NCBI GenBank assembly: GCA_964523575.1
Contig: CAZGAV010000011.1
Span: forward strand, 2,294-66,293
Direction: 5' to 3'
DNA length: 64,000 nucleotides
From: an uncultured Ignavibacteriales bacterium
Lineage (GTDB): Bacteria; Zixibacteria; MSB-5A5; GN15; JAAZOE01
A program made the position numbers and the translations under genes. Shown in pieces: positions 14,147-27,726 of the stretch. Every line of letters begins with the position of its first letter. Positions within the stretch are counted from its first letter, which is position 1. The notes beneath the pieces were generated by a model, which was given only the letters and a program-made list of their open reading frames with translations, did not search any database and was not told the DNA's origin.

Positions 14147-15628
14147 TTACGGCTGAAAGGCCAGAAACAGGCTGTGTCCGTTGCGATAAACGCGAAGCAG
14201 AATCGTGTCACCCTTCTTCATCATGGAAATTTCATTGGTAAATCCATCCACCGAGTCGATTTTTCTTCTGTTGACGGCGGTGATGACGTCGCCTTCGCGC
14301 AAACCGGCGGCGTAGGCGTTACTGCCCTGATCGATATCGGTGACCGCTACGCCCTGGGTATCGTCGGCGAGACCATAATACTTCCGAATGTCGGGAGTTA
14401 TGTCCTTGACCGCGAATCCGAGACCTTCCATCATACTGTTCGGGTTGGCGGCGATCAACTGGTTATCCGAAGCCTCGGCCAGCTTGACCTTGATGTCTTC
14501 CTGCTTGCCATTGCGCATGATACTGAGATCGACGACAGTGCCGGGGCTCGTGGATGCGACCCGGTTGCGTAAATCGGAGGAATTGTTGATATCGAAACCG
14601 TCCATTTTCTGGATGATGTCGCCCGCCTGCACGCCGGCTTTATCGGCCGGGCCATCATGGACGACTTCGCTGACCAGGGCGCCGTTGGTTTTCTTAATAC
14701 CCATGGCGTTCGCGATCGATTCGTTGATATCCTGAATTGCCACGCCCAGCCAGCCGCGGACGACCTTACCCTGCTTGATCAGGGAATTCATGACATGAGT
14801 CGCCATATTGACCGGGATGGCGAAGCCCAGGCCCTGCGAACCGCCGCTCTGACTGACAATCGCGGTATTGATACCGATCAGCCGGCCGTCCATATTCACC
14901 AGCGGACCGCCGGAATTACCGGGGTTGATGGCCGCATCGGTTTGAATAAAATCTTCGTAATCGGCCAGGCCGACATTGGATCGGCCGGTGGCGCTGATGA
15001 TGCCCTGGGTAACGGTATAAGCCAGATTTTCACTCATGGGACTGCCGATGGCCAGAACCAGTTCGCCGACGTTCAGGCTGTCGCTGTTGCCCATGGATAT
15101 GCTGGGATAATCGTCGCCGTCTATTTTAAGCACGGCAATGTCGGTTTTGGTGTCGGCGCCGACTACTTTGACGGGATGCTTGTTGCCGTCGAAAGTCCGA
15201 ACATAAATACTGTCGGCGCCGTCAATCACATGAGCGTTGGTCAATATATATCCATCACTGCTGGTAATAACTCCGCTCCCCAGCCCGTATTGATGAAATT
15301 GGCGTTGCTGCGGCTGTTGCTGTTGACCGCCATGCGGATTTTGAAAAAAGTCAAAAATTGACCCGAAATCGTAGGCGTTGGCGGGCATAGTCAATGTTTT
15401 TTCCGTGGAAACCGTGACAACGGTTGGTTTGATAGCCGCTGCAATATCTATCAGGGCCTGATTGAAATCATGCAAATTGGCGATAGGTCTGTTTTCAGCC
15501 GGGACCACGTGCGTGGGGCGGGCCACTGCGGCCAACTCAATGACAAGAAAGAGACTCAGAGCGACTCCGATACCTAAAACCAAATATCTTATGCGGTGCG
15601 AATTGCCGGAATTTTTTTTCGTCTTCAT
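14147..15628 (-). CDS. htrA: HtrA/DegP-family periplasmic serine endoprotease with two PDZ domains
   Basis: Catalytic motifs TNAHV and GNSGGPL, an N-terminal membrane anchor, and two PDZ-like segments. 493 aa. Confidence 0.95.
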   Translation of the reverse strand: MKTKKNSGNSHRIRYLVLGIGVALSLFLVIELAAVARPTHVVPAENRPIANLHDFNQALIDIAAAIKPTVVTVSTEKTLTMPANAYDFGSIFDFFQNPHGGQQQQPQQRQFHQYGLGSGVITSSDGYILTNAHVIDGADSIYVRTFDGNKHPVKVVGADTKTDIAVLKIDGDDYPSISMGNSDSLNVGELVLAIGSPMSENLAYTVTQGIISATGRSNVGLADYEDFIQTDAAINPGNSGGPLVNMDGRLIGINTAIVSQSGGSQGLGFAIPVNMATHVMNSLIKQGKVVRGWLGVAIQDINESIANAMGIKKTNGALVSEVVHDGPADKAGVQAGDIIQKMDGFDINNSSDLRNRVASTSPGTVVDLSIMRNGKQEDIKVKLAEASDNQLIAANPNSMMEGLGFAVKDITPDIRKYYGLADDTQGVAVTDIDQGSNAYAAGLREGDVITAVNRRKIDSVDGFTNEISMMKKGDTILLRVYRNGHSLFLAFQP

Positions 15629-15733: not shown

Positions 15734-15749
15734 TGCAATGTCCGTGCCA
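15734..15749 (-). promoter_or_regulatory. Sigma-54 (-24/-12) promoter upstream of htrA
   Basis: The minus strand reads TGGCACGGACATTGCA, an exact match to TGGCACG-N4-TTGCW. It lies about 105 nt upstream of the htrA start codon, in a 239-nt intergenic gap. Confidence 0.7.
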
Positions 15750-15867
15750 AGATTGAATCGCATGATAATCAACCACTTATGAGATGCGTCTCGGTGGCAT
15801 TTCGCCTCAACGGGGCATCTTGCCACACCCGATGTAAACGATTGAATGAAGATCAAAAAGGGAAGTT

Positions 15868-17190
15868 TTAGGCTTCGGTATCGCGAGGCCGGATAGTATG
15901 CGAGACTCGAATTTCCCGCCGGGTAATAAGCCGGTAGAGGCCTTCAATCAGGAACGAGAGTGCGATCATGGCCACCAGCACCCAGATGCGGACCGGCTGT
16001 GTCGTCATTGTATGCCAGATAAGAGCCGCCAGGGCCAGACCGCAGGCGAGTGCACCGGCGATCGAGATCCAGGGGCGGCTCCCGGTCTGGCGATGAAGAT
16101 GAAAGTTGGCCAGATTGACGGCCGCAAAAATTATCAGGAATCCGGCGCTTCCCATCATCGAAATACTCGACAGGTCGAACACATTGGCTACTATAAGGGT
16201 AATGCCGGCCGTTATTAACAAACCTTCGGCCGGGCGATTCCAGACTTTTTTCTCGAGGATGGGCGGCAGTTCCCCATCACGGGCGATGGTATAGCTGAGG
16301 CGCGCCGCGCCATACAGAGTGGCATTGATAGCCGAAGCCGTCGAAAGCAGAGCGGCAACGGCGATAAGAATAAAACCAAATTCGCCCATAAAAGGCCGGG
16401 CCGCTTCGGCCAGGGCGTAATCCTGAGCCTTGACGATCTGAGGGACGGACAGATTGCCTACCGCCACCCCGGCGACCAAAACATAGAGAATGATGACAAA
16501 AATGACGGCCGAGAAATAGGCTTTGGGCAAAGTCCGCTTCGGTCGCTCGACGTCATGCGCTGTGTTGGCGATCAATTCAAACCCTTCATAAGCCAGAAAA
16601 ATAATCATCCCCCCGGCGACCAGGTTCAAAGGCGGTGACCAGGCGGCGGGCGCCAGACGGCCCCATTCGATCGTCACGAAGCCCAGACCGGCAAAGAGCA
16701 GGAGAATCGACAGCTTGACCGCGACGATCAGGAGTTCGGCGCGGCCGATGGCCTGCGTATTGAGCATATTTAATCCGGTAATGGCGACGATACTGAAACT
16801 GATCAGCAGATGACGAAAAAGAGGTTGCAGATGAGCCGGAAACAGGGCCGCACCATAACTTCCGAAGGCGAAAGAATACAGGGACAACATGACGATGTAA
16901 GAAAGCCAGAGGAGAATATTGAGTCCGCCGGTGAACAACCCGGCCCCGAAGGCTCGATCAAGAAAGGTGACTGTCCCTCCCTGACTGGGGAAGGCGATGG
17001 ACATTTTGGTGTAGGAGTATGCGGTCAGAAGAGCCACCAGTCCGGCCACCAGAAAAGCGACTGGAGAACCTCCGCGGGCGACCAGAACCGCCATCCCGAG
17101 AACCGCGAAAATTCCCCCGCCAACCATGCCGCCGACACCGATGGCTGCTGTCTCCCAGTAACCCAGTTTTTTTCCGGCGGCATTCTTCAT
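15868..17190 (-). CDS. APC-superfamily amino acid/polyamine permease
   Basis: 440 aa with about 12 TM segments. N-terminal Gly-rich motif AIGVGGMVGGGIFAVLG. Confidence 0.9.
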   Translation of the reverse strand: MKNAAGKKLGYWETAAIGVGGMVGGGIFAVLGMAVLVARGGSPVAFLVAGLVALLTAYSYTKMSIAFPSQGGTVTFLDRAFGAGLFTGGLNILLWLSYIVMLSLYSFAFGSYGAALFPAHLQPLFRHLLISFSIVAITGLNMLNTQAIGRAELLIVAVKLSILLLFAGLGFVTIEWGRLAPAAWSPPLNLVAGGMIIFLAYEGFELIANTAHDVERPKRTLPKAYFSAVIFVIILYVLVAGVAVGNLSVPQIVKAQDYALAEAARPFMGEFGFILIAVAALLSTASAINATLYGAARLSYTIARDGELPPILEKKVWNRPAEGLLITAGITLIVANVFDLSSISMMGSAGFLIIFAAVNLANFHLHRQTGSRPWISIAGALACGLALAALIWHTMTTQPVRIWVLVAMIALSFLIEGLYRLITRREIRVSHTIRPRDTEA

Positions 17191-17251: not shown

Positions 17252-18097
17252 TTAGCCCGCTTTGCGTCTTACGTTCATTTCCGCCGCTTCAAGATATTTC
17301 TTTATCTTGCCTTCCGCAATGTCGAAAAGAAGTGTCAGATCAGTCTTGAGACCGGCGGATGGGGCGTCATCATGGTTGTCGCTGGTTATCACGAAGACTT
17401 TTCCCGGCAGCGTCAGTATCAGGCGTGAATAATAGAGCTCGGATCCGTCGGTCGTAATATGGTTCTCGATTATCACCCGGCAGAAGATGATCTTCTGGTT
17501 GAGCCGGGTAAGCTTCTCGGCCTCTTTGAATATATGTTCTTCGATATACATCAATCGCGGACTGTTGCGGAAAATAACATCGAGCGGAAAACCATGTCTC
17601 TGGGAAATAACCTTGGCTGTAGCCTTTTTCGCGGCTTTGGCAGAGACGTTGCTTTCCAGAATCTGGGCCACGATTTCCTGAAAGACATCGAGATCGAACG
17701 GTTTGTCCAGCATCGCCGCCACTCCCAGACTTTCCGCCTCGGCATGGGTTTTGGCGTCGCCGAAAGCGGTTATGAGCATTATGGGCGGGAAACCGCTGTT
17801 ATCATGGACAAAATCAAGTATCTCCATTCCGGTAAAACCGGGCATACGAATATCGGAAACAATAAGATCGAAACTTGCCGATTGCTCTTCATCAGTAAAA
17901 GACCCGAAGTGCTGTAATAATTCCACGCCGTTGGTGCATTCTTCGACTCGATATCCTTCTTTCGCCAGGACACGAATCAATAGCGATCTCATTTCATCAT
18001 CATCCTCAGCCAGAAGAATGGCGTATGGCTTTTCTTTTCTGCTCCGGCGCGCGGCCGAGCCATAATCGCGATTCTGCTGAGATTTCGAAGTGGCCAT
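17252..18097 (-). CDS. Response-regulator receiver fused to an HPF/RaiA-like (ribosome hibernation factor fold) domain
   Basis: REC motifs: LLAEDDDE, LIVSDIRMPGFTGME, LITAFGD, LDKP. The C-terminal ~110 aa follow the HPF/YfiA beta-alpha-beta-beta-beta-alpha pattern (LDVIFRN..IEEHIFKEAEKLTRL..IIFCRVIIEN..YYSRLILTLPGKVFVITSDN..LLFDIAEGKIKKYLE). Confidence 0.75.
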   Translation of the reverse strand: MATSKSQQNRDYGSAARRSRKEKPYAILLAEDDDEMRSLLIRVLAKEGYRVEECTNGVELLQHFGSFTDEEQSASFDLIVSDIRMPGFTGMEILDFVHDNSGFPPIMLITAFGDAKTHAEAESLGVAAMLDKPFDLDVFQEIVAQILESNVSAKAAKKATAKVISQRHGFPLDVIFRNSPRLMYIEEHIFKEAEKLTRLNQKIIFCRVIIENHITTDGSELYYSRLILTLPGKVFVITSDNHDDAPSAGLKTDLTLLFDIAEGKIKKYLEAAEMNVRRKAG

Positions 18098-18152
18098 GAC
18101 CTTTCTCCTCTAAGCAAGTGGTGGATGATTATTATTTTCTGATCATGATAAA

Positions 18153-18168
18153 AGCAAATAATGTGCCC
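18153..18168 (-). promoter_or_regulatory. Sigma-54 (-24/-12) promoter upstream of the REC-HPF gene
   Basis: The minus strand reads GGGCACATTATTTGCT with correct GG-N10-GC spacing. It lies about 55 nt upstream of the start codon at 18097. Confidence 0.65.
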
Positions 18169-18316
18169 GTATAAATCAATTGCCGCACAACGACTTAAAT
18201 GCAGACGGAATGTGTTATTCTTCCCCATTGGGGCGAATTGCCTCAAATGACGGGCAACAAAACCAATCTACGATAAATGCAGGAGATAGCCGAAATGCCG
18301 AGAAATCACCCGGCTT

Positions 18317-19687
18317 TCATGAAGCCGGTTTATCTTCGTCGTATTGTTGTAATTTCCGATAGAGGGTTTTGCGGTCGAGGCCGAGGATTCGTGAAGCCAG
18401 AGAACGATTGCCGCCAACGGTATCGAGAACATGGAGAATATAGCGGCGTTCGATCTCTTCCAGAGGAATCAGGTCGGCCGGATTTTCACTGTCGAAAGCC
18501 ATCCGCGAGCCGCGAAAATCATGCACTTTTTCGGGCAAATCTTCAGACGCGATATTATCATAAAGAGTCAGGGCCACGGCCCGTTCGATGGCATTTCGCA
18601 ATTCCCGGACATTTCCCGGCCAGGGATAATCGATCAGTTTCTGGGCGGCCGGTTGTGATATACCGACCACTTTTTTGCCCATCCGCTTGGCGAATTGACG
18701 GACGAAACGTCCGGCGATGAGCAGGATATCGTTGCCGCGGGCCCGCAGGGGCGGGACATCGAGCCGGATGACATTGATGCGGTAATAAAGATCTTCTCTG
18801 AAACGGCCTTCGGTTATGGCCGTTTCGAGGTCCTGATTCGTGGCCGTCAGAAGTCGCACATTGAAATCTGTTTCCGTTTTGCCGCCCACCGGTCGAATAC
18901 GGCGTTCCTCCAAGGCCCGCAACAGCTTGGGTTGCAGGGTCAGGGGAAAATCGCCGATTTCATCGAGCAGGAGCGTTCCCCCTTCGGCTTGTTGAAACAA
19001 ACCCTGGCGATCTTCCCGGGCATCGGTGAAGGCGCCGCGCTTGTGCCCGAATAATTCGCTTTCGAGCAGGTTTTCGGGGAGAGCCGAGCAGTTGATGGCG
19101 ACGAAAGGCTTGTTTTGGCGGCGGCTACGGTTATGCAGAGCCCGCGCCATCAATTCCTTGCCGGTGCCGCTTTCGCCTATGATCAGGACCGAGGTTTCGG
19201 TGTCGGCGATGCGGCTCAACTGCGAAAACAAGTTTATCATCGGTTTGCTTTCGCCGATAATTTCGTCAAACTGCTGTGATTCCTCAAGAGCCTCGCTGAG
19301 AAGATGGACCTTCTGCTGGAGTTCCCGGTGCCGTACGGCCCGTTCGATGGAGAGCGAAAGCAGATCGAGATCGATCGGTTTGGTGACAAAATCATAAGCC
19401 CCGGCCCGAATCGCCGCGATGGCCGAATCCATACTGCCGAAAGCGGTGATGACTATGACGGGAATATCGGGCCGATTGGCGTTGATCCTTTTGCATAATT
19501 CAATGCCGTCGATACCGGGCAGATTTAAATCGGTCAGAACGACGTCGATATCGTCATCCTTCATGCCGGCCAGAGCCTGATGCGGATCGGTGAAGGTGGC
19601 CGGCGTGAAACCCCGGCGGCGAAAATCGCTTTCCAGCAGTTTGCACATCTCATGGTCGTCATCGACGATTATTATTTTTCCGCTCAT
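18317..19687 (-). CDS. Sigma-54-dependent NtrC-family response regulator (REC + AAA+ + Fis-type HTH)
   Basis: REC: IIVDDDHE, VLTDLNLPGIDG. AAA+: Walker A GESGTGKE, sigma-54 contact loop GAFTDA (a GAFTGA variant), LLLDEIGD. The C-terminal HTH is GGNRSLASRILGLDRKTLYRKL. Confidence 0.95.
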   Translation of the reverse strand: MSGKIIIVDDDHEMCKLLESDFRRRGFTPATFTDPHQALAGMKDDDIDVVLTDLNLPGIDGIELCKRINANRPDIPVIVITAFGSMDSAIAAIRAGAYDFVTKPIDLDLLSLSIERAVRHRELQQKVHLLSEALEESQQFDEIIGESKPMINLFSQLSRIADTETSVLIIGESGTGKELMARALHNRSRRQNKPFVAINCSALPENLLESELFGHKRGAFTDAREDRQGLFQQAEGGTLLLDEIGDFPLTLQPKLLRALEERRIRPVGGKTETDFNVRLLTATNQDLETAITEGRFREDLYYRINVIRLDVPPLRARGNDILLIAGRFVRQFAKRMGKKVVGISQPAAQKLIDYPWPGNVRELRNAIERAVALTLYDNIASEDLPEKVHDFRGSRMAFDSENPADLIPLEEIERRYILHVLDTVGGNRSLASRILGLDRKTLYRKLQQYDEDKPAS

Positions 19688-21162
19688 CCTCTCTCCTCGG
19701 CCGGCAGGTAAATCGTAAATCGAGTGCCTTTACCCACCGTGCTTTCGACGGCAATCCATCCCTTGTGTTCCTCGATTATTCCGTAGGCGATTGACAGTCC
19801 CAGCCCGGTCCCCTGTCCGACATCCTTGGTCGAAAAGAAGGGATCGAAAATGAGGTTCAGATTTTCGGGAGCTATGCCCTCGCCCTGATCGGTAATATCG
19901 ATGGCCAGATAATCGCGCTCGGCGGCATCGGCGTGGGCCAGATTTTTGCGGCGATCGGGATACAATTTTATCTCAACGGTTCCGCCCCGGGGCATGGCCT
20001 GGATGGCGTTCATGACGAAATTCATCAGAACCTGCTGAATCTGCGATTGATCGACCGATACTCCCGGAGATTCGCCCTCTTCCACCAATTTCAATGTGAC
20101 CCTGGCCTTACCGGCCATCGGCCGCAGAAGATCCAGAACCTGACTGCACAACTGGCGCATGATCGTTGACATCCGGTGCGTCTGCCGCCGTCGCGCGAAA
20201 TCGAGCAATTGCCGGATAATCCTGATAATCCTCTCAGTCTGCTCGACAATGATGCGCGAATAGTCGCCGATCTCCTCCGAATCCAGTTTCTCGGTGCTCA
20301 ACAGCTTGGCCCGACCGGTAATAACATTCAAGGGAGTACCCAGTTCATGAGCGACGCCGGAGGCCAGCCGGCCGACCGTGGCCAGGCGCTCGGTGTGCCG
20401 CAATTGCTCCATGGTCGACAGCCGTTTTTCGACTTCGGCCCGCAGTTTCTCGCGGGAAAGCTGCAGCTGGGCGCACATCTGATTTAAAGCCCCGGCCAGC
20501 TGCGATAATTCGTGGTGGCCGGAAAGTGTCAGGTCGCAAGAGAAGTTTCCCTGCCCGATCCGCCGGGTTTTTTCCACCAGTTGTTTCAACGGCTGGCCGA
20601 CATATCGGTTACCGAGAATCCATAAAAAACCCAGACCCAAGAGGATCAGGACGACCGACAGAATGACGACCCGGATGGCCGTTTCCCTGGTATAATGCCG
20701 CAGACTGCCCATCGGTTCTTCCAGTTCAATGGCGCCCAGCTTCATATCTTTTGCATTGACCGGGACATAGGTGCGCATGAACTGGCGACCGTACTCATCG
20801 ACATAATGCAACGAAGTATCCCGGCCCTGTTCCACGGGGAGAAGATATTCGGGCCGGACATCGGGCGGCAAAGTCGGTTCGCTCACGCTGCTGGGATAAA
20901 TCCAGCGAATGCGGATACTGTTTTCGGCGCGGTTGATTTCATGAATTCGCCGCAACGCCCGTTCGGGATTATTCTGGAACATCGCCTCGGATACCATGCC
21001 TCCGGCCAATTGACCCAGCTGGACGGCTGTGGATTGCATATTATTGTGGAAAAGATCTATTTCGCGCCGCACCGATAAATAACCGTCGATGACGATCGTA
21101 AGCAGAATAATCGGAAATAATACAATCAGTAATTTTAGCGTCAGTCGCATAGGCCTGTCCAA
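19684..21162 (-). CDS. Membrane sensor histidine kinase (periplasmic domain + HAMP + HisKA + HATPase)
   Basis: Two TM segments flank a ~150-aa loop, followed by a HAMP-like linker. H-box SGVAHELGTPLNVI; DQGEGI and GTGLGLSIA boxes. There is a 4-nt overlap with the activator gene. Confidence 0.9.
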   Translation of the reverse strand: MDRPMRLTLKLLIVLFPIILLTIVIDGYLSVRREIDLFHNNMQSTAVQLGQLAGGMVSEAMFQNNPERALRRIHEINRAENSIRIRWIYPSSVSEPTLPPDVRPEYLLPVEQGRDTSLHYVDEYGRQFMRTYVPVNAKDMKLGAIELEEPMGSLRHYTRETAIRVVILSVVLILLGLGFLWILGNRYVGQPLKQLVEKTRRIGQGNFSCDLTLSGHHELSQLAGALNQMCAQLQLSREKLRAEVEKRLSTMEQLRHTERLATVGRLASGVAHELGTPLNVITGRAKLLSTEKLDSEEIGDYSRIIVEQTERIIRIIRQLLDFARRRQTHRMSTIMRQLCSQVLDLLRPMAGKARVTLKLVEEGESPGVSVDQSQIQQVLMNFVMNAIQAMPRGGTVEIKLYPDRRKNLAHADAAERDYLAIDITDQGEGIAPENLNLIFDPFFSTKDVGQGTGLGLSIAYGIIEEHKGWIAVESTVGKGTRFTIYLPAEERG

Positions 21163-21212: not shown

Positions 21213-23735
21213 TTAATGCGCACGCTTCGCCTGCCTGATTGCGCGTTCGCGGCGCTTCTGGTGCATGTGTTTGAGCAGGCCCGGTTCCCGCGATCCGAAA
21301 ATCTTAAAGGCCAGTAACTTGGAACCATCTTCGATTATAAAACCGGCCAATGCATAAGCCCACACGACTCCGGCCCAGCCCCAGCCGATGGGAGCCATCA
21401 GGAAGCCATACACGGAAATCAGGGTCGCTACCATTTGGGTCAATATAACTGCGGCCAAAAGCGGCGTGCCCGGTCGCGAGGACCAGAAGGGCCGCTCGGT
21501 TCGGGTGACAAAAATTGTCAGATGGCCGGCCACCGAAAGCTTGAGATACATGAAAGTCTGAAGCATATCACGGCTCAAGTTGAAAACCCTCTCACCCAGA
21601 AAGAAAAGGCCGAAAGATTCGATCACGCCAATCACGCCCAGAACAGTGGCAATCGGCAAAAGGATATGCATATCCCAGGCATCGGGACCCAGCGATTCCG
21701 TAACGCGGTCATAGGCAATGGACAGTATCGCGCCGTCGTTGAGCAGGGCCAGAAGAACAATCATAACGGCCGTAACCGGATAAAAATTGAAGGCCAGAAT
21801 CGACAGCGTCATGAACAGCAGGACCCGGATAGTTTCGGCTATTCGATAGGTGGCGTAAGCCTGCATCCTTTTGAATATTTTCCGGCTTTCGTGAATGGCC
21901 GAAATAATAACCGACAGACCCTTGGTCAGGAGAACGATGTCGGAGGCCGAACGGGCCGCATCGGTAGCGTCGGAAACGGCGATGCCGACGTCGGCTTTTT
22001 TCAGCGCCGGAGCGTCGTTGACGCCATCGCCGGTCATACCGACGATATGGTCCCGCTTTTGAAGGGCGGCTACAATATTGTATTTATGCTCGGGGAAAAC
22101 CTGGGCGAAACCATCGGCTTCTTCGATCTGGACCGGGGAAAAATCAAATGTGGCCTGATCCTCGCCGTCGGCGGAAATTTGCAGAATATTGGTGCCCAGG
22201 CCGAGTTGACGGGCTGTCTCTCGGGCGATGGCCTCCTGGTCGCCGGTGATCATTTTCACCGTGACGCCCATTTGCCGCGCCTGTTCAATGGTCGCTTTCG
22301 AATCCTCGCGCGGCGGATCATACAGAGGCAAAATCCCCAGAAACTGCCAACGGCCTTTTTTATCGGTTCGGGCCACGCCCAGCGAGCGATAGCCGCGTTG
22401 AGCGAAAGATTCGATCTCCTGCAGAGTATCTTTTTCGATATCGGCTGAATTTACCGACATTTTCAAAATGACCTGCGGCGCCCCTTTGGACACGCGGAAA
22501 GCCCGGCCGTCTTTTGGTTCAACCGCGGCTTCGGTTTTTTTATGCACCGGATCGAAGGGGATGAATTCGGTGACTTTGTAGTCTTTCAGCAGGTCTTTAT
22601 CTTCCAACCCTTCCACGACGGCGACGTCGATCGGGTCATTATCTTCTTCTCGTGAAGCCAATGCCGCCGCCAGAAAAATATCGCCGGCCGTGACCCCTTT
22701 AACGGTGAACGGTTCGGCGGCTTTTAATGAATTCTGGGTGAGGGTGCCGGTTTTATCGCTGCATAATATATCCACTCCGGCCAGTTCTTCTATTGAGGCC
22801 AGCCGGGAAACGATAGCTTTCTTGGCCGCCAGCAATCTGGCCCCGGCTGCCATAGTGACCGACAAGACCGTCGGCATGGCGATAGGAATCGCCGCCACCA
22901 GAAGCACTAACGCAAACTGCATGGTGGTGGCCAGGCGGTCGCCGCGGAAGATGGAGACGGTGAGGATAATAATAACGAGAAAGACCGCCAGGACAATGAG
23001 ATAGTCGCCGATTTTAAGCACCGCCCGCTGAAGGTGGCTCAGCCCGCCGTCTTCCTTGACCAATTGGGCCGTTTTACCGAAATAGGTCGCATCCCCGATG
23101 GCGCCGACCACAGCCCGGGCTTCGCCGCGCTTGACATTGGAACCGGAATAGACTTTCTCCTTCTTGTGACGCGACACCGGCAATGATTCTCCGGTGAGGG
23201 CCGCCTGATCGACCTGAATTTCGTCGTCGTCAATCAGAACAGCATCGGCCGGTATGATATCGCCGGACCGTAAACGGATCAAATCCCCCGGCACCAGGTC
23301 CCGAACGGGAATAATTTTCCATTCTCCGCCTCTTCTGACCCGAGCTTTGATCGCCAGAGTCTCCTTGAGAGCGGCGATAGTGTTGTCGGCCTGGTATTCC
23401 TCCCAAAAACCGATACAGGCGTTAATCAGGAGCATGGCTACGATAATACCGAAATCGCTCCAATGGCGGACGATAATCGAAAGCACCGCCGCGGCCTCGA
23501 TCATCCACGGAATCGGTCCCCAGAAATAACTCAGGAATTTCAGGATCGGATGCGTTTTATGCTCGACCAGTTCATTATAACCGTACTGCTCGTGCCCTGC
23601 CCTCACTTCGCTGTCGCTCAATCCCGCTTCGTTGAACTGAGGGATAACGGCGGCCTCGGAGTCATTATGGGATCGAGGGGCGTCATTATCCGATTGGGAC
23701 GCCGCCGGATGATCAGTCACTGCCTTTCCACTCAT
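21213..23735 (-). CDS. P-type ATPase, type IIIA (plasma-membrane H+-ATPase-like)
   Basis: P-type motifs TGES, DKTGTLT, MITGDQ and GDGVNDAPALKKADVGIAV. The N-terminus (YGYNELVEHKTHPILKFLSYFWGPIPWMIEAAAV) and the TM6 region (LLALLNDGAILSIAYDRV) resemble plant/fungal proton pumps. Confidence 0.9.
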   Translation of the reverse strand: MSGKAVTDHPAASQSDNDAPRSHNDSEAAVIPQFNEAGLSDSEVRAGHEQYGYNELVEHKTHPILKFLSYFWGPIPWMIEAAAVLSIIVRHWSDFGIIVAMLLINACIGFWEEYQADNTIAALKETLAIKARVRRGGEWKIIPVRDLVPGDLIRLRSGDIIPADAVLIDDDEIQVDQAALTGESLPVSRHKKEKVYSGSNVKRGEARAVVGAIGDATYFGKTAQLVKEDGGLSHLQRAVLKIGDYLIVLAVFLVIIILTVSIFRGDRLATTMQFALVLLVAAIPIAMPTVLSVTMAAGARLLAAKKAIVSRLASIEELAGVDILCSDKTGTLTQNSLKAAEPFTVKGVTAGDIFLAAALASREEDNDPIDVAVVEGLEDKDLLKDYKVTEFIPFDPVHKKTEAAVEPKDGRAFRVSKGAPQVILKMSVNSADIEKDTLQEIESFAQRGYRSLGVARTDKKGRWQFLGILPLYDPPREDSKATIEQARQMGVTVKMITGDQEAIARETARQLGLGTNILQISADGEDQATFDFSPVQIEEADGFAQVFPEHKYNIVAALQKRDHIVGMTGDGVNDAPALKKADVGIAVSDATDAARSASDIVLLTKGLSVIISAIHESRKIFKRMQAYATYRIAETIRVLLFMTLSILAFNFYPVTAVMIVLLALLNDGAILSIAYDRVTESLGPDAWDMHILLPIATVLGVIGVIESFGLFFLGERVFNLSRDMLQTFMYLKLSVAGHLTIFVTRTERPFWSSRPGTPLLAAVILTQMVATLISVYGFLMAPIGWGWAGVVWAYALAGFIIEDGSKLLAFKIFGSREPGLLKHMHQKRRERAIRQAKRAH

Positions 23736-23749
23736 ACTCGTCTCACAAC

Positions 23750-24295
23750 CTATTCTTCAACGGTTTCCGCGGGTACCTTTTTAATGGTTTTCAACGCTTC
23801 CCGCGCCAGAACGGCGACATGCTCCCATGGTCCCAAAGTGCGAATATCGTCCAGAACTTCAAGCACCGGCTGGCGCAAATGACGCTGGCGCTCGAGGTCA
23901 TGGAGTACATGATGAGCGCCGTTGCGCAACGATTCCGATTCCGGTCTTTCAACCAGCCCCCGAAGCAGAGGTTCGATGGCGGCCTTATTCAGGGCTATCA
24001 GGGCCTCGGCGGCCAGCCATTGAATTTCATAATCTTCATCGCTCAGGGCCTCGACGAGGTTATCACCGGTTTCGGGATCCTTGATGGTAATTAGGGCTTT
24101 GGCCGCTTCCCAACGGGCGTCATCGCCACCTTCTTTGAGTATTTTGATCAACCAGGGACTGGCTTCCCGGCCCAATTTTTCAAACTCCATTCGAGCTTCG
24201 TGCCGCACCATCCAATTTCGGTCGCTCAGGTTGTCTGCCAATCTCTTCAGTGTGGCCGGTGTCGGTTTACTTTTATCTTCGGTTTGAGCTGTCAT
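23750..24295 (-). CDS. HEAT-repeat protein
   Basis: Repeated D..W.VR..AA.AL-type HEAT/PBS-lyase repeats (NWMVRHEARMEF, DARWEAAKALI, EIQWLAAEALI). It ends 14 nt upstream of the ATPase gene. Confidence 0.8.
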   Translation of the reverse strand: MTAQTEDKSKPTPATLKRLADNLSDRNWMVRHEARMEFEKLGREASPWLIKILKEGGDDARWEAAKALITIKDPETGDNLVEALSDEDYEIQWLAAEALIALNKAAIEPLLRGLVERPESESLRNGAHHVLHDLERQRHLRQPVLEVLDDIRTLGPWEHVAVLAREALKTIKKVPAETVEE

Positions 24296-24352: not shown

Positions 24353-24368
24353 AGCAAAGCCCTTGCCA
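24353..24368 (-). promoter_or_regulatory. Sigma-54 (-24/-12) promoter upstream of the HEAT/H+-ATPase/kinase/activator operon
   Basis: The minus strand reads TGGCAAGGGCTTTGCT with correct GG-N10-GC spacing. It lies about 57 nt upstream of the start codon at 24295. Confidence 0.6.
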
Positions 24369-24648
24369 AAGAACACGGAAGTCGTCCGATGGGCCTTATC
24401 GCCATCGAGACAACAGGTTATCCGAATCCGGGAGGTCACAATGACAATTCGCGGCAATCTCGGAATGGGGCATAATGCCACAATGGGTAATGATGCTACA
24501 TCTATTACCCTACTTTCGAAGCCTGCCAGTTTTCAGGAATATGGCCCGCTGACAACTTCGGCTGCGGTAGTCTTTCTCAATATATACGGACTCAAATCGA
24601 GACCCGGCTCGCACGGTCCTGTGCCGGTCACAACGGTTTCGATAGTTC

Positions 24649-24664
24649 CGGCACGAAAATTGCA
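24649..24664 (+). promoter_or_regulatory. Sigma-54 (-24/-12) promoter upstream of the small secreted protein gene
   Basis: The plus strand reads CGGCACGAAAATTGCA. It lies about 37 nt upstream of the ATG at 24702 and is divergent from the promoter at 24353-24368. Confidence 0.65.
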
Positions 24665-24701: not shown

Positions 24702-25142
24702 ATGTTAAAGAAAATTGCGATTCTTTTGGGTATGGCGGCCATGATCGCCTGGCCGGGGAGTCATGCCATGGCCCAGCCCAAAACCGAATCCAATGGCGCC
24801 ATGAGCGCTCTAATCGCCTCCACCTCGCCCGATTCTATCCGTAGTCTGGACACGAAAGACGTCATCGACGCTCTGCTGATCGACGGGACCAAAATGGAAG
24901 CTTCTTATGATTCACTGCAGACCAATTTCGAAAGCCTGACAAAAATAAAGGACGATGAGGCTCGCCGGACGGAAACGGCTATTTATAAAACAGAGATGCA
25001 AACCCTGCGGGATAAACTCTCGGAAGAGATGGATGAATTGCGATTCCTGAGATCGATGTCCCAATCGGAAACGGCCGCGTCTGCCGGGGAAGTACGGGCT
25101 CAGCCGGCCAAGGTTACCAAGGGAGACGCCACCGGCCACTGA
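24702..25142 (+). CDS. Small secreted hypothetical protein (146 aa)
   Basis: The internal ATG is preceded by GGAAGGAG and followed by a signal peptide (MLKKIAILLGMAAMIAWPGSHAMAQ). The longer track ORF (from 24363) would run through the sigma-54 promoter. The mature part is helical and charged. Confidence 0.65.
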   Translation: MLKKIAILLGMAAMIAWPGSHAMAQPKTESNGAMSALIASTSPDSIRSLDTKDVIDALLIDGTKMEASYDSLQTNFESLTKIKDDEARRTETAIYKTEMQTLRDKLSEEMDELRFLRSMSQSETAASAGEVRAQPAKVTKGDATGH

Positions 25143-25308: not shown

Positions 25309-27726
25309 TCAGGGACAGCAGAATTCCTGAGGTCCCGGACCGGCTTTGAAAACGTAGCCGATCAGGTACACCGCATCGGCGATATTGGTCTCGCCGTCGT
25401 TGTTGGCGTCGCCGGAGCAGAGCGGATCCGGAGCCGGACCGCTCTTGAAGACATAATTGATCAGGAACACCGCGTCGGCCACATTAACGTCGCCGTCGCC
25501 GTTGGCGTCGCCGCAAACGTAATCGCAGACGTCACCGATACCGTTGCTGTTGGCGTCGGCCTGATCCGGGTTGTAAACATCGGGGCAATTATCGCAACCG
25601 TCCGGGAACCCATCAGCGTCAGTATCGACGTTATCGTCGAATCCCGGACAGATGTCACAACCGTCGGGGACGCCGTCGGCATCGGTATCGACATTATCGT
25701 CGAATCCCGGACAGATATCGCATCCGTCGGGTACGCCGTCGGCGTCGGCATCGACGTTATCGTCGAATCCCGGGCATATGTCGCAGGCGTCGCCGACGCC
25801 GTCGCCGTCGACATCTTCCTGGCCGGGATTGGCGACATCGGGACAATTATCGCAAACGTCGCCGATTCCGTCGAAATCGACATCGTCCTGTCCCGGGTTG
25901 TACAGCGCCGGGCAGTTGTCAACGTCATCGCCGATCCCGTCGCCGTCGGAATCGACAATGATTCCGGTGGGGGCAAAATGGATGAAAATACTGGTGTCGG
26001 GATCGTTATAATGTCGATATTCCCAGATTATCTTGGTGCCGTGATCGGAATAAGCGGAGCTATGCACGTCATTGATGACGACATCGTCGGGGACGGTGTT
26101 GACGATGCTCGGCGCTCCCCAGGTGGCCCCGGCATCCTCGGAGATCGTCTGATATAACGTATCGCCGCGCACAAATGAACAGGCGAAAACGTTGCTCGCG
26201 ACATGCGTCACGCGCGGGTGCCGTTCGCTGTCGGTGGTAGCCACGACCGTCGACTGCAGGAGATTTTCCATGTCGGAGCCGCCGGCGTAGAAGCAGATGA
26301 TATCGACGTCATCGGGAGCTCCATCGGTATAGTATTCCATGACAATGACGATGTTGCCGTTGTTGGCCGCGACATCCGGGTAGCGAATATTTTCGCCGGC
26401 ATTGAGGCTGTAGGTGACAGCCCCGCCGATTACGGCGTCTTCCATATCGGCAAAATTATCGCGCCGTAAAAGAAGGAAGCGCTGAGAGACGCCGGCATCG
26501 TAGGGATCATAAACGGTATAGCCATAGTGAGTCACGTGGTCGATGTCGACCGCCGTCGAAAGACACCCGGTAAAACCGTCGATCCAGGTCAGCGACGCAT
26601 AACCGGTAGAGATGGTGGTATCGTATTGATAGAAAAAGAAGGGGCCGTCAATAATATCCTGATAGCTGAGAACATGGGAAATGAGGCCGAAACGGTATTC
26701 ACCAGGGAAATAGGTGAACTCCTGGGAGCTGTCGCAGGCGATATCGGCCATCTTCATACTGTTGACGCCGTATTGCTCCCAGTTCCAGGTACTGAGGCCG
26801 AAAGTCGCCACGGCCATCGGATTATCAATAGTGATCAACTGGGTATTGGCGCCGCTATTCTGGGAGGCCTTGGGGACGAAGGTCGCGTAAAATTCAGTGC
26901 CCCAGCCCCAAAAATCGGCCGCGGGATAAGAATAATCTCCCGTAAACGAGCCGGCGCTGGGGAAGGACATGCCGTCATCGTCCGAACCGGCCCAGATGAC
27001 AGCCGTATCGTTCGTGTTCGACTCGTAAGCCATAAGCAGGGTACCGTTGCCGGCGTCGGCCAGGATGGGATGAATGAAGGCCGAATCCATGACATAGGTA
27101 ATATCCTCGGCCGTGCAATCGAGGACATAATCGCCGGAGGGATTGCTGGAAAAATCGCCGTCAACGACGATATAATAGGTGGAACCGGCATTCATGACGA
27201 CGCCCGTCAAAATTGACCGCAAACCGCATCCGAATCGGATGGCCGCAACCAGCGTATCGGCGTTGGTGCGGTAGACCCAGAGATTGGTCATGTACGACGA
27301 TTCGCAGAGGCTGATATCGACCAACTGGTTGACCGGCGGCGAATAGGAATAGACGACGTCGGGCGAGTGACCGATATTGCCAACGGACGCCTCCTGGTAA
27401 TCATCGGCGTACCCGACGGTCGTCCCGGAATCCAGGTAAGGCATGGAAGTAATCACGGTAGCGGAGGCAATATCCTCGCCGCCCTGCCGGCTTCCGGAAT
27501 TGAGCAGTTGGGAAGGAGTGAGATCGTTGATGGAGATTGTCTCACCTTCGGCCGTCAGCCGCTGGGGCGCCTGCGATACTTTTTCCGCCTGGGGTCGGTT
27601 CAAAACCAATCCCTTGGGATTATTGGGCGAAAACCCCTCGTTCGAAGGAATCGCCCCGATCGCGCCGGCTATCAAGGCTATCAAAAAGGTGAGAGCCAGT
27701 CCCGCTGTCAGACATTGACGTTTCAT
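25309..27726 (-). CDS. Secreted BNR/Asp-box protein with thrombospondin type-3 repeats and C-terminal dockerin-like module
   Basis: Signal peptide. Asp-box SEDAGATW. A run of D-x-D-x-DG-x-x-D-x-C-D-x-CP repeats (DSDGDGIGDDVDNCP...). The last 69 aa are GDANGDGDVNVADAVFLINYVF / GDANNDGETNIADAVYLIGYVF ending in CCP. Confidence 0.85.
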   Translation of the reverse strand: MKRQCLTAGLALTFLIALIAGAIGAIPSNEGFSPNNPKGLVLNRPQAEKVSQAPQRLTAEGETISINDLTPSQLLNSGSRQGGEDIASATVITSMPYLDSGTTVGYADDYQEASVGNIGHSPDVVYSYSPPVNQLVDISLCESSYMTNLWVYRTNADTLVAAIRFGCGLRSILTGVVMNAGSTYYIVVDGDFSSNPSGDYVLDCTAEDITYVMDSAFIHPILADAGNGTLLMAYESNTNDTAVIWAGSDDDGMSFPSAGSFTGDYSYPAADFWGWGTEFYATFVPKASQNSGANTQLITIDNPMAVATFGLSTWNWEQYGVNSMKMADIACDSSQEFTYFPGEYRFGLISHVLSYQDIIDGPFFFYQYDTTISTGYASLTWIDGFTGCLSTAVDIDHVTHYGYTVYDPYDAGVSQRFLLLRRDNFADMEDAVIGGAVTYSLNAGENIRYPDVAANNGNIVIVMEYYTDGAPDDVDIICFYAGGSDMENLLQSTVVATTDSERHPRVTHVASNVFACSFVRGDTLYQTISEDAGATWGAPSIVNTVPDDVVINDVHSSAYSDHGTKIIWEYRHYNDPDTSIFIHFAPTGIIVDSDGDGIGDDVDNCPALYNPGQDDVDFDGIGDVCDNCPDVANPGQEDVDGDGVGDACDICPGFDDNVDADADGVPDGCDICPGFDDNVDTDADGVPDGCDICPGFDDNVDTDADGFPDGCDNCPDVYNPDQADANSNGIGDVCDYVCGDANGDGDVNVADAVFLINYVFKSGPAPDPLCSGDANNDGETNIADAVYLIGYVFKAGPGPQEFCCP
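25624..25812 (-). repeat. Three tandem 63-bp coding repeats (TSP3-like unit DICPGFDDNVDxDADGxPDGC)
   Basis: Units are 25624-25686, 25687-25749 and 25750-25812. Units 1 and 2 differ at 7 of 63 positions. Unit 3 matches for its first ~27 nt and then diverges. Confidence 0.85.

Follow-up and report, generated by a model that had tools for sequence, protein, structure and literature searches.

A minus-strand open reading frame (ORF) at 17252..18097 in a 64,000-nucleotide (nt) stretch of contig CAZGAV010000011.1 from an uncultured Ignavibacteriales bacterium (hereafter the window, meaning the whole stretch that was analysed) encodes a 281-amino-acid (aa) receiver/HPF-like fusion protein. This protein is a response regulator with a diverged HPF/RaiA-type (S30AE) output domain, and its architecture is real, recurrent, and uncharacterised. 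The fold and HPF ancestry of the C-terminal domain are secure, and the receiver is intact and, judged from its sequence, looks phosphorylatable. The overall picture that we favour, at a probability of roughly 0.55, is of a response regulator that would be phosphorylated in response to a signal and whose HPF-like output would damp translation.

The ORF given in an initial annotation of the same DNA was exact, with the minus strand of 17252..18097 translating to the protein described there, and the coding sequence (stop codon 17252-17254) is further supported by an identical database protein (P0001) and by homologues. A Shine-Dalgarno region, AGGAGAAAGG (18100..18110, minus strand), as read from the sequence, ends 2 nt before the ATG (the TC of ...AAAGGTC ATG). 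The AlphaFold model of the whole protein (predicted local distance difference test, pLDDT, 84) consists of a tail, a (βα)5 receiver, a linker, and the C-terminal domain. The N-terminal tail, aa 1-25 (18023..18097, minus strand, as are the segments that follow), is basic (net charge +5) and disordered, with a pLDDT below 50 for aa 1-18, and homologue alignment shows a comparable extension across the fusion family. The receiver (REC) occupies aa 26-154 (17636..18022), and is followed by an interdomain linker, aa 155-169 (17591..17635), modelled with a pLDDT of 58-61. The linker lies within the Ala/Lys-rich stretch that the initial annotation had recognised, SNVSAKAAKKATAKVISQRHG (aa 149-169), which carries a net charge of +5 and is of low confidence in the model. 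The HPF/RaiA-like (S30AE-superfamily) domain extends from aa 170 to aa 281 (17255..17590).

The C-terminal domain is HPF-like

Whilst direct family scans of the window protein fail, profile and structure searches place its C-terminal domain among the hibernation factors. Neither the full protein nor its isolated C-terminal 131 aa matches PF02482 in Pfam at E values of up to 10, and neither matches an HPF model in NCBIfam. The isolated C-terminal domain does, however, match one solved protein, chain 9 of PDB entries 9T0Z/9TZE (9t0z_9; ‘ribosome hibernation promoting factor’), with E=4e-8 in phmmer, and a profile built from the C-terminal domains of 35 family members and searched against PDB chains finds 9t0z_9 at 3.6e-19 and the HPF chain 9sda_9 at 2.5e-6. 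The same profile matches E. coli YfiA (5.5e-4), Thermus protein Y, E. coli and Vibrio HPF, and others at E values of 5.5e-4 to 7e-3, with 17 distinct HPF, RaiA, or protein Y chains matched. No competing family appeared in this search of PDB chains.

The family model itself is reached by many of the relatives, with 19 of the 35 C-terminal domains matching PF02482 when scanned singly (best E=4.2e-11) and nothing else matched consistently. Four receiver-fused relatives (from proteins P0128 and P0204 and loci L007 and L009) lie above the PF02482 gathering score. The hidden Markov model (HMM) searches by which the initial annotation had proposed to check the protein are thus borne out for Response_reg, for the profile, and for 19 of the 35 relatives on PF02482, and fail for PF02482 on the window protein itself. 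Direct family scans alone would have led to the HPF likeness being wrongly dismissed, which only searches by profile and by structure prevented.

The AlphaFold model of the domain alone is of high confidence, with a pLDDT of 90.5 and a predicted template modelling (TM) score of 0.82. The order of secondary structure elements is β-α-β-β-β-α (β172-177, α183-197, β205-214, β220-230, β233-238, and α248-280), agreeing with the HPF/YfiA-like order that had been predicted from the sequence. In a Foldseek search of the PDB with this model, the best 32 matches are all HPF, RaiA, protein Y, or plastid pY, with a probability of 1.00 and TM scores of 0.5-0.8, and include hibernation factors both ribosome-bound and free. 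Structure prediction and comparison therefore upheld the proposed fold.

The closest solved relative by sequence is the N-terminal S30AE domain in 9T0Z/9TZE, chain 9 of which is HPFcold, Coxiella burnetii CBU_0020. HPFcold consists of an S30AE domain and a cold-shock domain, and has been placed by cryo-electron microscopy in the tRNA cleft and decoding centre of the 30S subunit (bioRxiv 10.1101/2025.11.08.686982). HPFcold and the window protein have the same β-α-β-β-β-α fold and share a CR/CH-V-V strand, a long β2-β3 hairpin, and an LT(L/V)PGK motif. In contrast to HPFcold, the window protein has no cold-shock domain match, ends directly after α2, and carries an N-terminal receiver instead.

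By profile and by fold, and only partly by signature residues, the domain is a diverged member of the S30AE superfamily. We prefer the name HPF-like to HPF because the curated model fails and the signature residues are only partly kept. The net charge and isoelectric point of the domain also resemble those of canonical HPFs, a likeness that has no discriminating power.

Two subgroups of receiver-fused proteins

Column-by-column alignment of receiver-fused, stand-alone, HPFcold-like, and E. coli proteins divides the receiver-fused proteins into two subgroups. A canonical, Pfam-positive subgroup retains the α1 Lys of the ‘aKLe’ motif, the α2 ‘DxYxAI’ motif, and the Arg of ‘RQL’. In the diverged subgroup, to which the window protein belongs, the α2 Arg position is occupied by Gly in 91% of sequences, with the next residue basic in 86%, and the DxY motif and α1 Lys are largely lost, the Lys being kept in only 14%. 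HPFcold keeps the α2 Arg that is Gly in this subgroup. The window protein itself retains the α1 Lys (K195), has G249 and K251 in place of the Asp and Tyr, and has G263 in place of the Arg with Lys264 beside it, so that the full canonical signature of α1 Lys, α2 DxYxAI, and RQL Arg is absent. The diverged subgroup keeps basic positions R207, K233, K/R264, R/K266, and K267. For this subgroup, continued binding to the decoding site is not assured, and the case for it is weakened by the divergence of the signature.

This divergence raises the question of whether the fold has been repurposed, with the HPF-derived domain no longer plugging the decoding site and acting on another RNA or protein target, such as an mRNA, an sRNA, or a regulon partner. 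The loss of the α2 Arg (Gly263, 91%), of DxY, and of the α1 Lys in most of the subgroup would fit such a change, as would the failure of the window sequence to match PF02482 even at E values of up to 10 and the established resemblance of the S30AE fold to general double-stranded-RNA-binding folds. We nevertheless regard repurposing as rather unlikely, with the fold retained at high confidence and only hibernation factors retrieved by it, and with basic residues conserved beside the lost Arg. Furthermore, the other receiver-fused subgroup shares this neighbourhood and keeps the canonical signature, which suggests a single ancestral function directed at the ribosome. The canonical and diverged subgroups offer a natural comparison for identifying the residues that matter in ribosome binding.

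The receiver domain is intact

The complete receiver described in the initial annotation was recovered in every particular. Response_reg (PF00072) matches aa 27-143 with E=1e-20 and a score of 74.4 bits against a cut-off of 30.2, and the motifs AEDDDEM, LIVSDIRMPGF, LITAFGD, and LDKPF are all found. The active site is formed by the acidic pocket D32/D33, the phospho-acceptor Asp82, Thr110, and Lys132, and when 56 homologues are aligned, D32, D82, T110, and K132 are invariant and D33 is kept in at least 90%. The region aa 26-154 is modelled as a (βα)5 fold with a pLDDT mostly of 87-97. Model score, active-site quintet, and fold, every feature by which PF00072 membership can be tested, thus agree, and the invariance of the catalytic residues argues that the receiver is under selection for phosphorylation chemistry. 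The nearest NCBIfam models are those of the AtoC/NtrC, CpdR, and FixJ receivers.

This conservation bears on whether the protein could be a constitutive hibernation factor, its receiver having only a structural or dimerisation role and its activity being set by sigma-54-dependent expression alone. Expression is predicted to be under tight sigma-54 and activator control already, and the receiver of one relative (P0208) is degenerate, as such a factor would allow; the invariance of D32, D82, T110, and K132, and the conservation of D33 in at least 90% of the 56 homologues, make it very improbable.

Receivers akin to the fused one vary in their setting. P0208, a receiver-fused relative of 291 aa, carries a degenerate pseudo-receiver, with NN at the acidic pocket and another residue in place of the phospho-acceptor Asp. 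There are also stand-alone receivers that share 51-57% identity with the fusion receiver, and in three loci genes for stand-alone receivers closely akin to the fused receiver lie directly upstream of the fusion gene (L007, 1041-1601; L009, 3379-3834; L088, 214-687 and 1151-1717), with a sigma-54 promoter preceding the receiver-only gene in L009. These upstream genes suggest multi-receiver phosphate traffic.

The fusion is recurrent

Among 5.8 billion proteins searched were the identical P0001 (NCBI) and about 70 full-length relatives, 270-285 aa long and 31-55% identical. More than 50 independent metagenomic proteins, drawn from assemblies in NCBI, JGI, ENA, and Logan, have the same fusion encoded as a single ORF and a linker of conserved length, and the fusion is likewise present in 10 fetched loci. 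Stand-alone receivers (51-57% identical) and HPF-like proteins of 110-125 aa both exist, as would be required had two separate genes, one for a receiver and one for a short HPF, been joined by a frameshift or mis-assembly; this recurrence excludes such an artefact, leaving it a negligible probability.

The combination of PF02482 and PF00072 has already been recorded automatically on several relatives, with one JGI product named ‘CheY-like chemotaxis protein/ribosome-associated translation inhibitor RaiA’, and the architecture is, given these double-domain tags, uncharacterised rather than unseen. A receiver/S30AE fusion is neither described nor characterised in the full-text literature searched, in agreement with the statement in the initial annotation that no characterised example was known, and the HPFcold preprint (bioRxiv 10.1101/2025.11.08.686982) makes no mention of it. 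The nearest named relatives come from Desulfobacterales, Gammaproteobacteria, and Binatia metagenome-assembled genomes (MAGs). A scan of GTDB genomes with patterns derived from the receiver found the full-length fusion only in L007 and L009 among the matches listed, most of which are receiver-only.

When 1.84 billion cluster representatives were searched exhaustively with the profile, 1354 proteins matched at E values of up to 1e-10. They fall into three size classes: stand-alone (110-125 aa), HPFcold-like (approximately 180-200 aa), and receiver-fused (263-309 aa). Within the best 150 of the 1354, the receiver-fused proteins make up at least 16 clusters at 50% identity. Stand-alone as well as fused relatives reach the PF02482 gathering score. 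Other members of the subfamily are fused to a cold-shock domain (P0142), to a C-terminal YbaK-type tRNA-editing domain (P0135), or, in P0226, to an N-terminal release-factor-like baeRF/Host_attach domain behind which the S30AE subfamily domain lies. The receiver is the only signalling partner found in the subfamily, the remaining partners all being related to translation, which argues that the subfamily acts on the ribosome; the baeRF fusion, in turn, indicates that the subfamily accepts a partner at its N-terminus. Both this fusion and that to YbaK also look uncharacterised. One further protein, P0144 (1339 aa, 11 matches to the domain profile), was rejected as a repetitive surface protein resembling type IX secretion system and ice-binding proteins, its matches being spurious.

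A sigma-54 promoter and a local kinase/activator regulon

The sigma-54 promoter claimed for the fusion gene in the initial annotation is supported by its match to consensus, by its conservation at homologous loci, and by its position beside a sigma-54 activator gene and a conserved palindrome. The -24/-12 element, GGGCACATTATTTGCT (18153..18168, minus strand), has one mismatch to the consensus used (TGGCAC-N5-TTGCW) and stops, at its 3' end, 55 nt short of the fusion ATG, and the spacing of the -24 GG and -12 GC is that of a sigma-54 promoter. Approximately 60 nt upstream of the -24 element, a candidate activator-binding site (upstream activating sequence, UAS) is formed by GAGGCAATTCGCCCC AATG GGGAAGAATAACACAT (18210..18244, minus strand).

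The window holds five matches to the consensus at no more than one mismatch, compared with 1.59 expected, and four of these are intergenic, face a gene, and fall within one 10-kb stretch. Besides that of the fusion gene, they are a perfect promoter, TGGCACGGACATTGCA (15734..15749, minus strand), before htrA/degP; TGGCAAGGGCTTTGCT (24353..24368, minus strand), before an operon encoding a HEAT-repeat protein, a proton-efflux ATPase, the kinase, and the activator; and the divergent CGGCACGAAAATTGCA (24649..24664, plus strand), approximately 35 nt upstream of an ATG at 24702. The palindrome G(T/G)GGCA-N3-TGCCCC is found 60-170 nt upstream of the -24 element at each of the four promoters, with a copy identified by motif match upstream of the htrA promoter (GTGGCAAGATGCCCC, 15812..15826) and a copy matching exactly on both strands (GTGGCATTATGCCCC, 24467..24481) that is common to the two divergent promoters between which it lies. 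This form of the motif occurs in the window only at sigma-54 promoters. These elements predict a local regulon made up of htrA, the fusion gene, the operon that runs from the HEAT-repeat gene to the activator gene, and the gene for a small protein that is probably exported. The fifth match (17638-17653, plus strand) falls within the fusion gene, antisense to it, and is most likely due to chance, because no family-supported ORF lies downstream of it.

The initial annotation had also tied the promoter to the historical naming of HPF as the sigma-54 modulation protein. That tie is coincidental, with the fusion gene belonging to a local kinase/activator regulon and not to an rpoN operon.

Directly upstream of the fusion gene is the gene for an NtrC-type sigma-54 enhancer-binding response regulator of 456 aa (18317..19687, minus strand), with REC, AAA+, and Fis-type helix-turn-helix domains (Sigma54_activat, E=3.9e-70; Response_reg; HTH_8). 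Next to it, further upstream of the fusion gene, is the gene for a membrane sensor histidine kinase of 492 aa (19684..21162, minus strand), with two predicted transmembrane segments and HAMP, HisKA, and HATPase_c domains in Pfam. The histidine kinase is a candidate phosphodonor of the fusion protein, and accompanies the activator at the related loci.

Conservation of this arrangement was assessed across 12 loci, namely the window and homologous loci (protein identities of 35-55%) taken from metagenomes and from MAGs of Desulfobacterales, Gammaproteobacteria, and Binatia. A kinase and/or NtrC-type activator gene adjoins the fusion gene in 9 of the 12, and a sigma-54 promoter with at most one mismatch precedes the fusion gene, or the receiver-only gene before it, in six. 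Four more loci have weaker or variant (-12 TTGA) forms, the background rate being 0.042 per kb per strand. Elements equivalent to the promoter of the window are found upstream of homologues in L001, L002, L005, L006, L087, and L009. In three quarters of the loci (9/12), the fusion gene is preceded by the palindrome core GGCA-N4-GCC[CA]C, a candidate activator-binding site whose background rate is 0.047 per kb. The genes that recur nearby encode HtrA, the HEAT/H+-ATPase pair, a Na+/H+ exchanger, MgtC, Kup, HSP20, and YfdX, a set that points to envelope and ion/pH stress.

The same arrangement could be read as that of a phosphate sink or feedback modulator, in which the fusion protein would compete with the activator for the phosphoryl groups of the kinase and its C-terminal domain would be secondary. 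Being encoded beside a kinase and an activator, and predicted to be induced by them, is typical of negative feedback, and stand-alone receiver genes lie directly upstream of the fusion gene in L007, L009, and L088. A sink needs no conserved, folded output of 110 aa, however, yet the domain has been kept over at least 16 clusters at 50% identity with its surface basic residues conserved, and we consider this explanation improbable.

Proposed mechanism

The neighbourhood and domain content are consistent with a scheme in which envelope or ion/pH stress would activate the membrane kinase, and the phosphorylated activator would bind the palindromes and turn on the sigma-54-dependent genes, the fusion gene among them. 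Asp82 of the fusion protein may then be phosphorylated by the same kinase or by acetyl phosphate, with phosphorylation gating the HPF-like domain either through release from masking by the receiver or through receiver dimerisation. The HPF-like domain would occupy the tRNA/mRNA cleft of the 30S subunit, and translation would be reversibly damped while the protease and pump handle damage. In its output the fusion protein most resembles HPFcold, HPF, and RaiA, and in its input any phospho-activated response regulator. Its binding to ribosomes and its phospho-control are putative, and signal-controlled ribosome silencing is plausible.

A more specific form of this scheme, which we regard as possible and somewhat short of an even chance, has one membrane kinase phosphorylating both the sigma-54 activator and the fusion protein, the latter being switched between a free and a decoding-site-bound state. 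The ribosome would then be the direct target of the pathway, with the activator turning on the proton pump, HtrA, and the fusion gene. Phospho-dependent dimerisation of the receiver might also pair ribosomes, in the manner of the C-terminal domain of long HPF.

Several points weigh against this interpretation of the fusion protein as a phosphorylation-controlled ribosome-directed factor. The window protein itself fails the S30AE models of Pfam and NCBIfam, and in its subgroup the canonical signature residues (α2 Arg, DxY, and mostly the α1 Lys) are replaced. The fusion receiver and the receiver of the adjacent activator are only 27% identical, and the sequence gives no indication that the two share one kinase. 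Additionally, a receiver of 130 aa at the N-terminus may clash with the 50S subunit. Finally, ribosome binding and phosphorylation of the fusion protein are themselves inferred.

Hibernation factors such as RMF, HPF, RaiA, Balon, and HPFcold are controlled mainly by protein amount. If the proposed mechanism is true, the fusion protein would provide a fast, reversible, signal-dependent hibernation switch, and the ribosome would join the outputs of response regulators. In the more specific form of the scheme, it would also be without precedent, both as a response regulator that acts on the ribosome and as a hibernation factor placed under post-translational control by a signal. The conserved neighbours (kinase, sigma-54 activator, HtrA, and proton pump) lead to the hypothesis that translation is throttled during envelope or ion/pH stress.

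Comparison with known systems

The short HPF (YhbH) and RaiA/YfiA/protein Y of E. coli and Thermus resemble the C-terminal domain of the window protein in fold (Foldseek TM scores of 0.6-0.8), size, and net charge. These proteins are single-domain, are controlled by expression only, and are encoded in rpoN or stress operons and not behind a sigma-54 promoter, whereas the window protein falls below the Pfam threshold, has partly lost the signature, and has gained a phospho-receiver. The long HPF of Gram-positive bacteria, Thermus, and cyanobacteria, and plastid PSRP1, likewise have two domains joined by a flexible linker, with the second domain adding function. In long HPF, however, the additional domain is C-terminal and a constitutive dimeriser that forms 100S ribosomes, whilst that of the window protein is an N-terminal signalling receiver. 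The C-terminal dimerisation domain of long HPF has no Pfam match in the window protein, and nothing follows α2.

As in the fusion protein, a canonical receiver is coupled to an output at the post-transcriptional or protein level in response regulators with non-DNA outputs (ANTAR RNA-binding regulators, RssB, CheY, and CpdR). To our knowledge, none of these has an S30AE domain or a ribosome target, and no such case was found in the literature searched.

The layout of the locus resembles that of ZraPSR, the envelope-stress system of enterobacteria (histidine kinase ZraS, sigma-54 activator ZraR, and the divergently encoded periplasmic ZraP), with a membrane kinase, a sigma-54 activator, and divergent sigma-54 promoters sharing a central palindrome in both systems. 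Here, a small, probably exported protein is encoded opposite the kinase/activator genes, and HtrA, which serves envelope quality control, is included in the predicted regulon. The window kinase and activator score on the ZraS and ZraR models, far below the equivalog cut-offs, and orthology to ZraPSR was ruled out, with all equivalog scores far below cut-off. Membership of the small protein in the ZraP/CpxP family was likewise rejected in the absence of a Pfam match, its likeness to zraP being positional only. We know of no ribosome-directed member of ZraPSR.

Neighbouring genes and further observations

Upstream of the kinase gene in the same operon are the genes for a plasma-membrane proton-efflux P-type ATPase (type IIIA) of 840 aa (21213..23735, minus strand; TIGR01647, 1042 bits against a cut-off of 615) and, first in the operon, the HEAT-repeat protein (23750..24295, minus strand; HEAT_2, E=5.9e-25). 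Bacterial type IIIA proton-efflux pumps are little studied. This HEAT/H+-ATPase gene pair recurs by the kinase/activator module in L002, L005, and L006. The divergently encoded small protein, a probable regulon member of 146 aa (24702..25142, plus strand), has in translation a signal-peptide-like N-terminus and a coiled-coil-like region; it matches no Pfam family and is weakly similar (E=2e-5) to the product of a gene of 147 aa beside the fusion gene in L006.

On the other side of the fusion gene, a Do-family periplasmic serine protease, HtrA/DegP, is encoded at 14147..15628 (minus strand; TIGR02037, 492 bits against a cut-off of 416). HtrA adjoins the fusion gene in L087 and L089, and is near it in L005. 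Between the two genes in the window, and 61 nt downstream of the fusion gene, is a gene for an APC-family amino-acid permease (15868..17190, minus strand; AA_permease_2), which is not conserved at the other loci. A scan for terminator-like sites between the fusion and permease genes found none, and the permease is possibly co-transcribed with the fusion gene. Scans for sigma-70 promoters and terminators around the fusion gene gave nothing informative.

Two of the homologous loci carry a promoter-like sequence of the form GGCAT-N5-TTGATAC upstream of the fusion gene (L089, at approximately -150 from the start codon; L090, at approximately -95), with a non-canonical GA at -12 and an otherwise sigma-54-like appearance. 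Finally, a large TSP_3/dockerin-repeat protein is encoded near the module both in the window (25309-27726, minus strand) and in L005 (13549-14853), which hints at wider synteny between these two loci.

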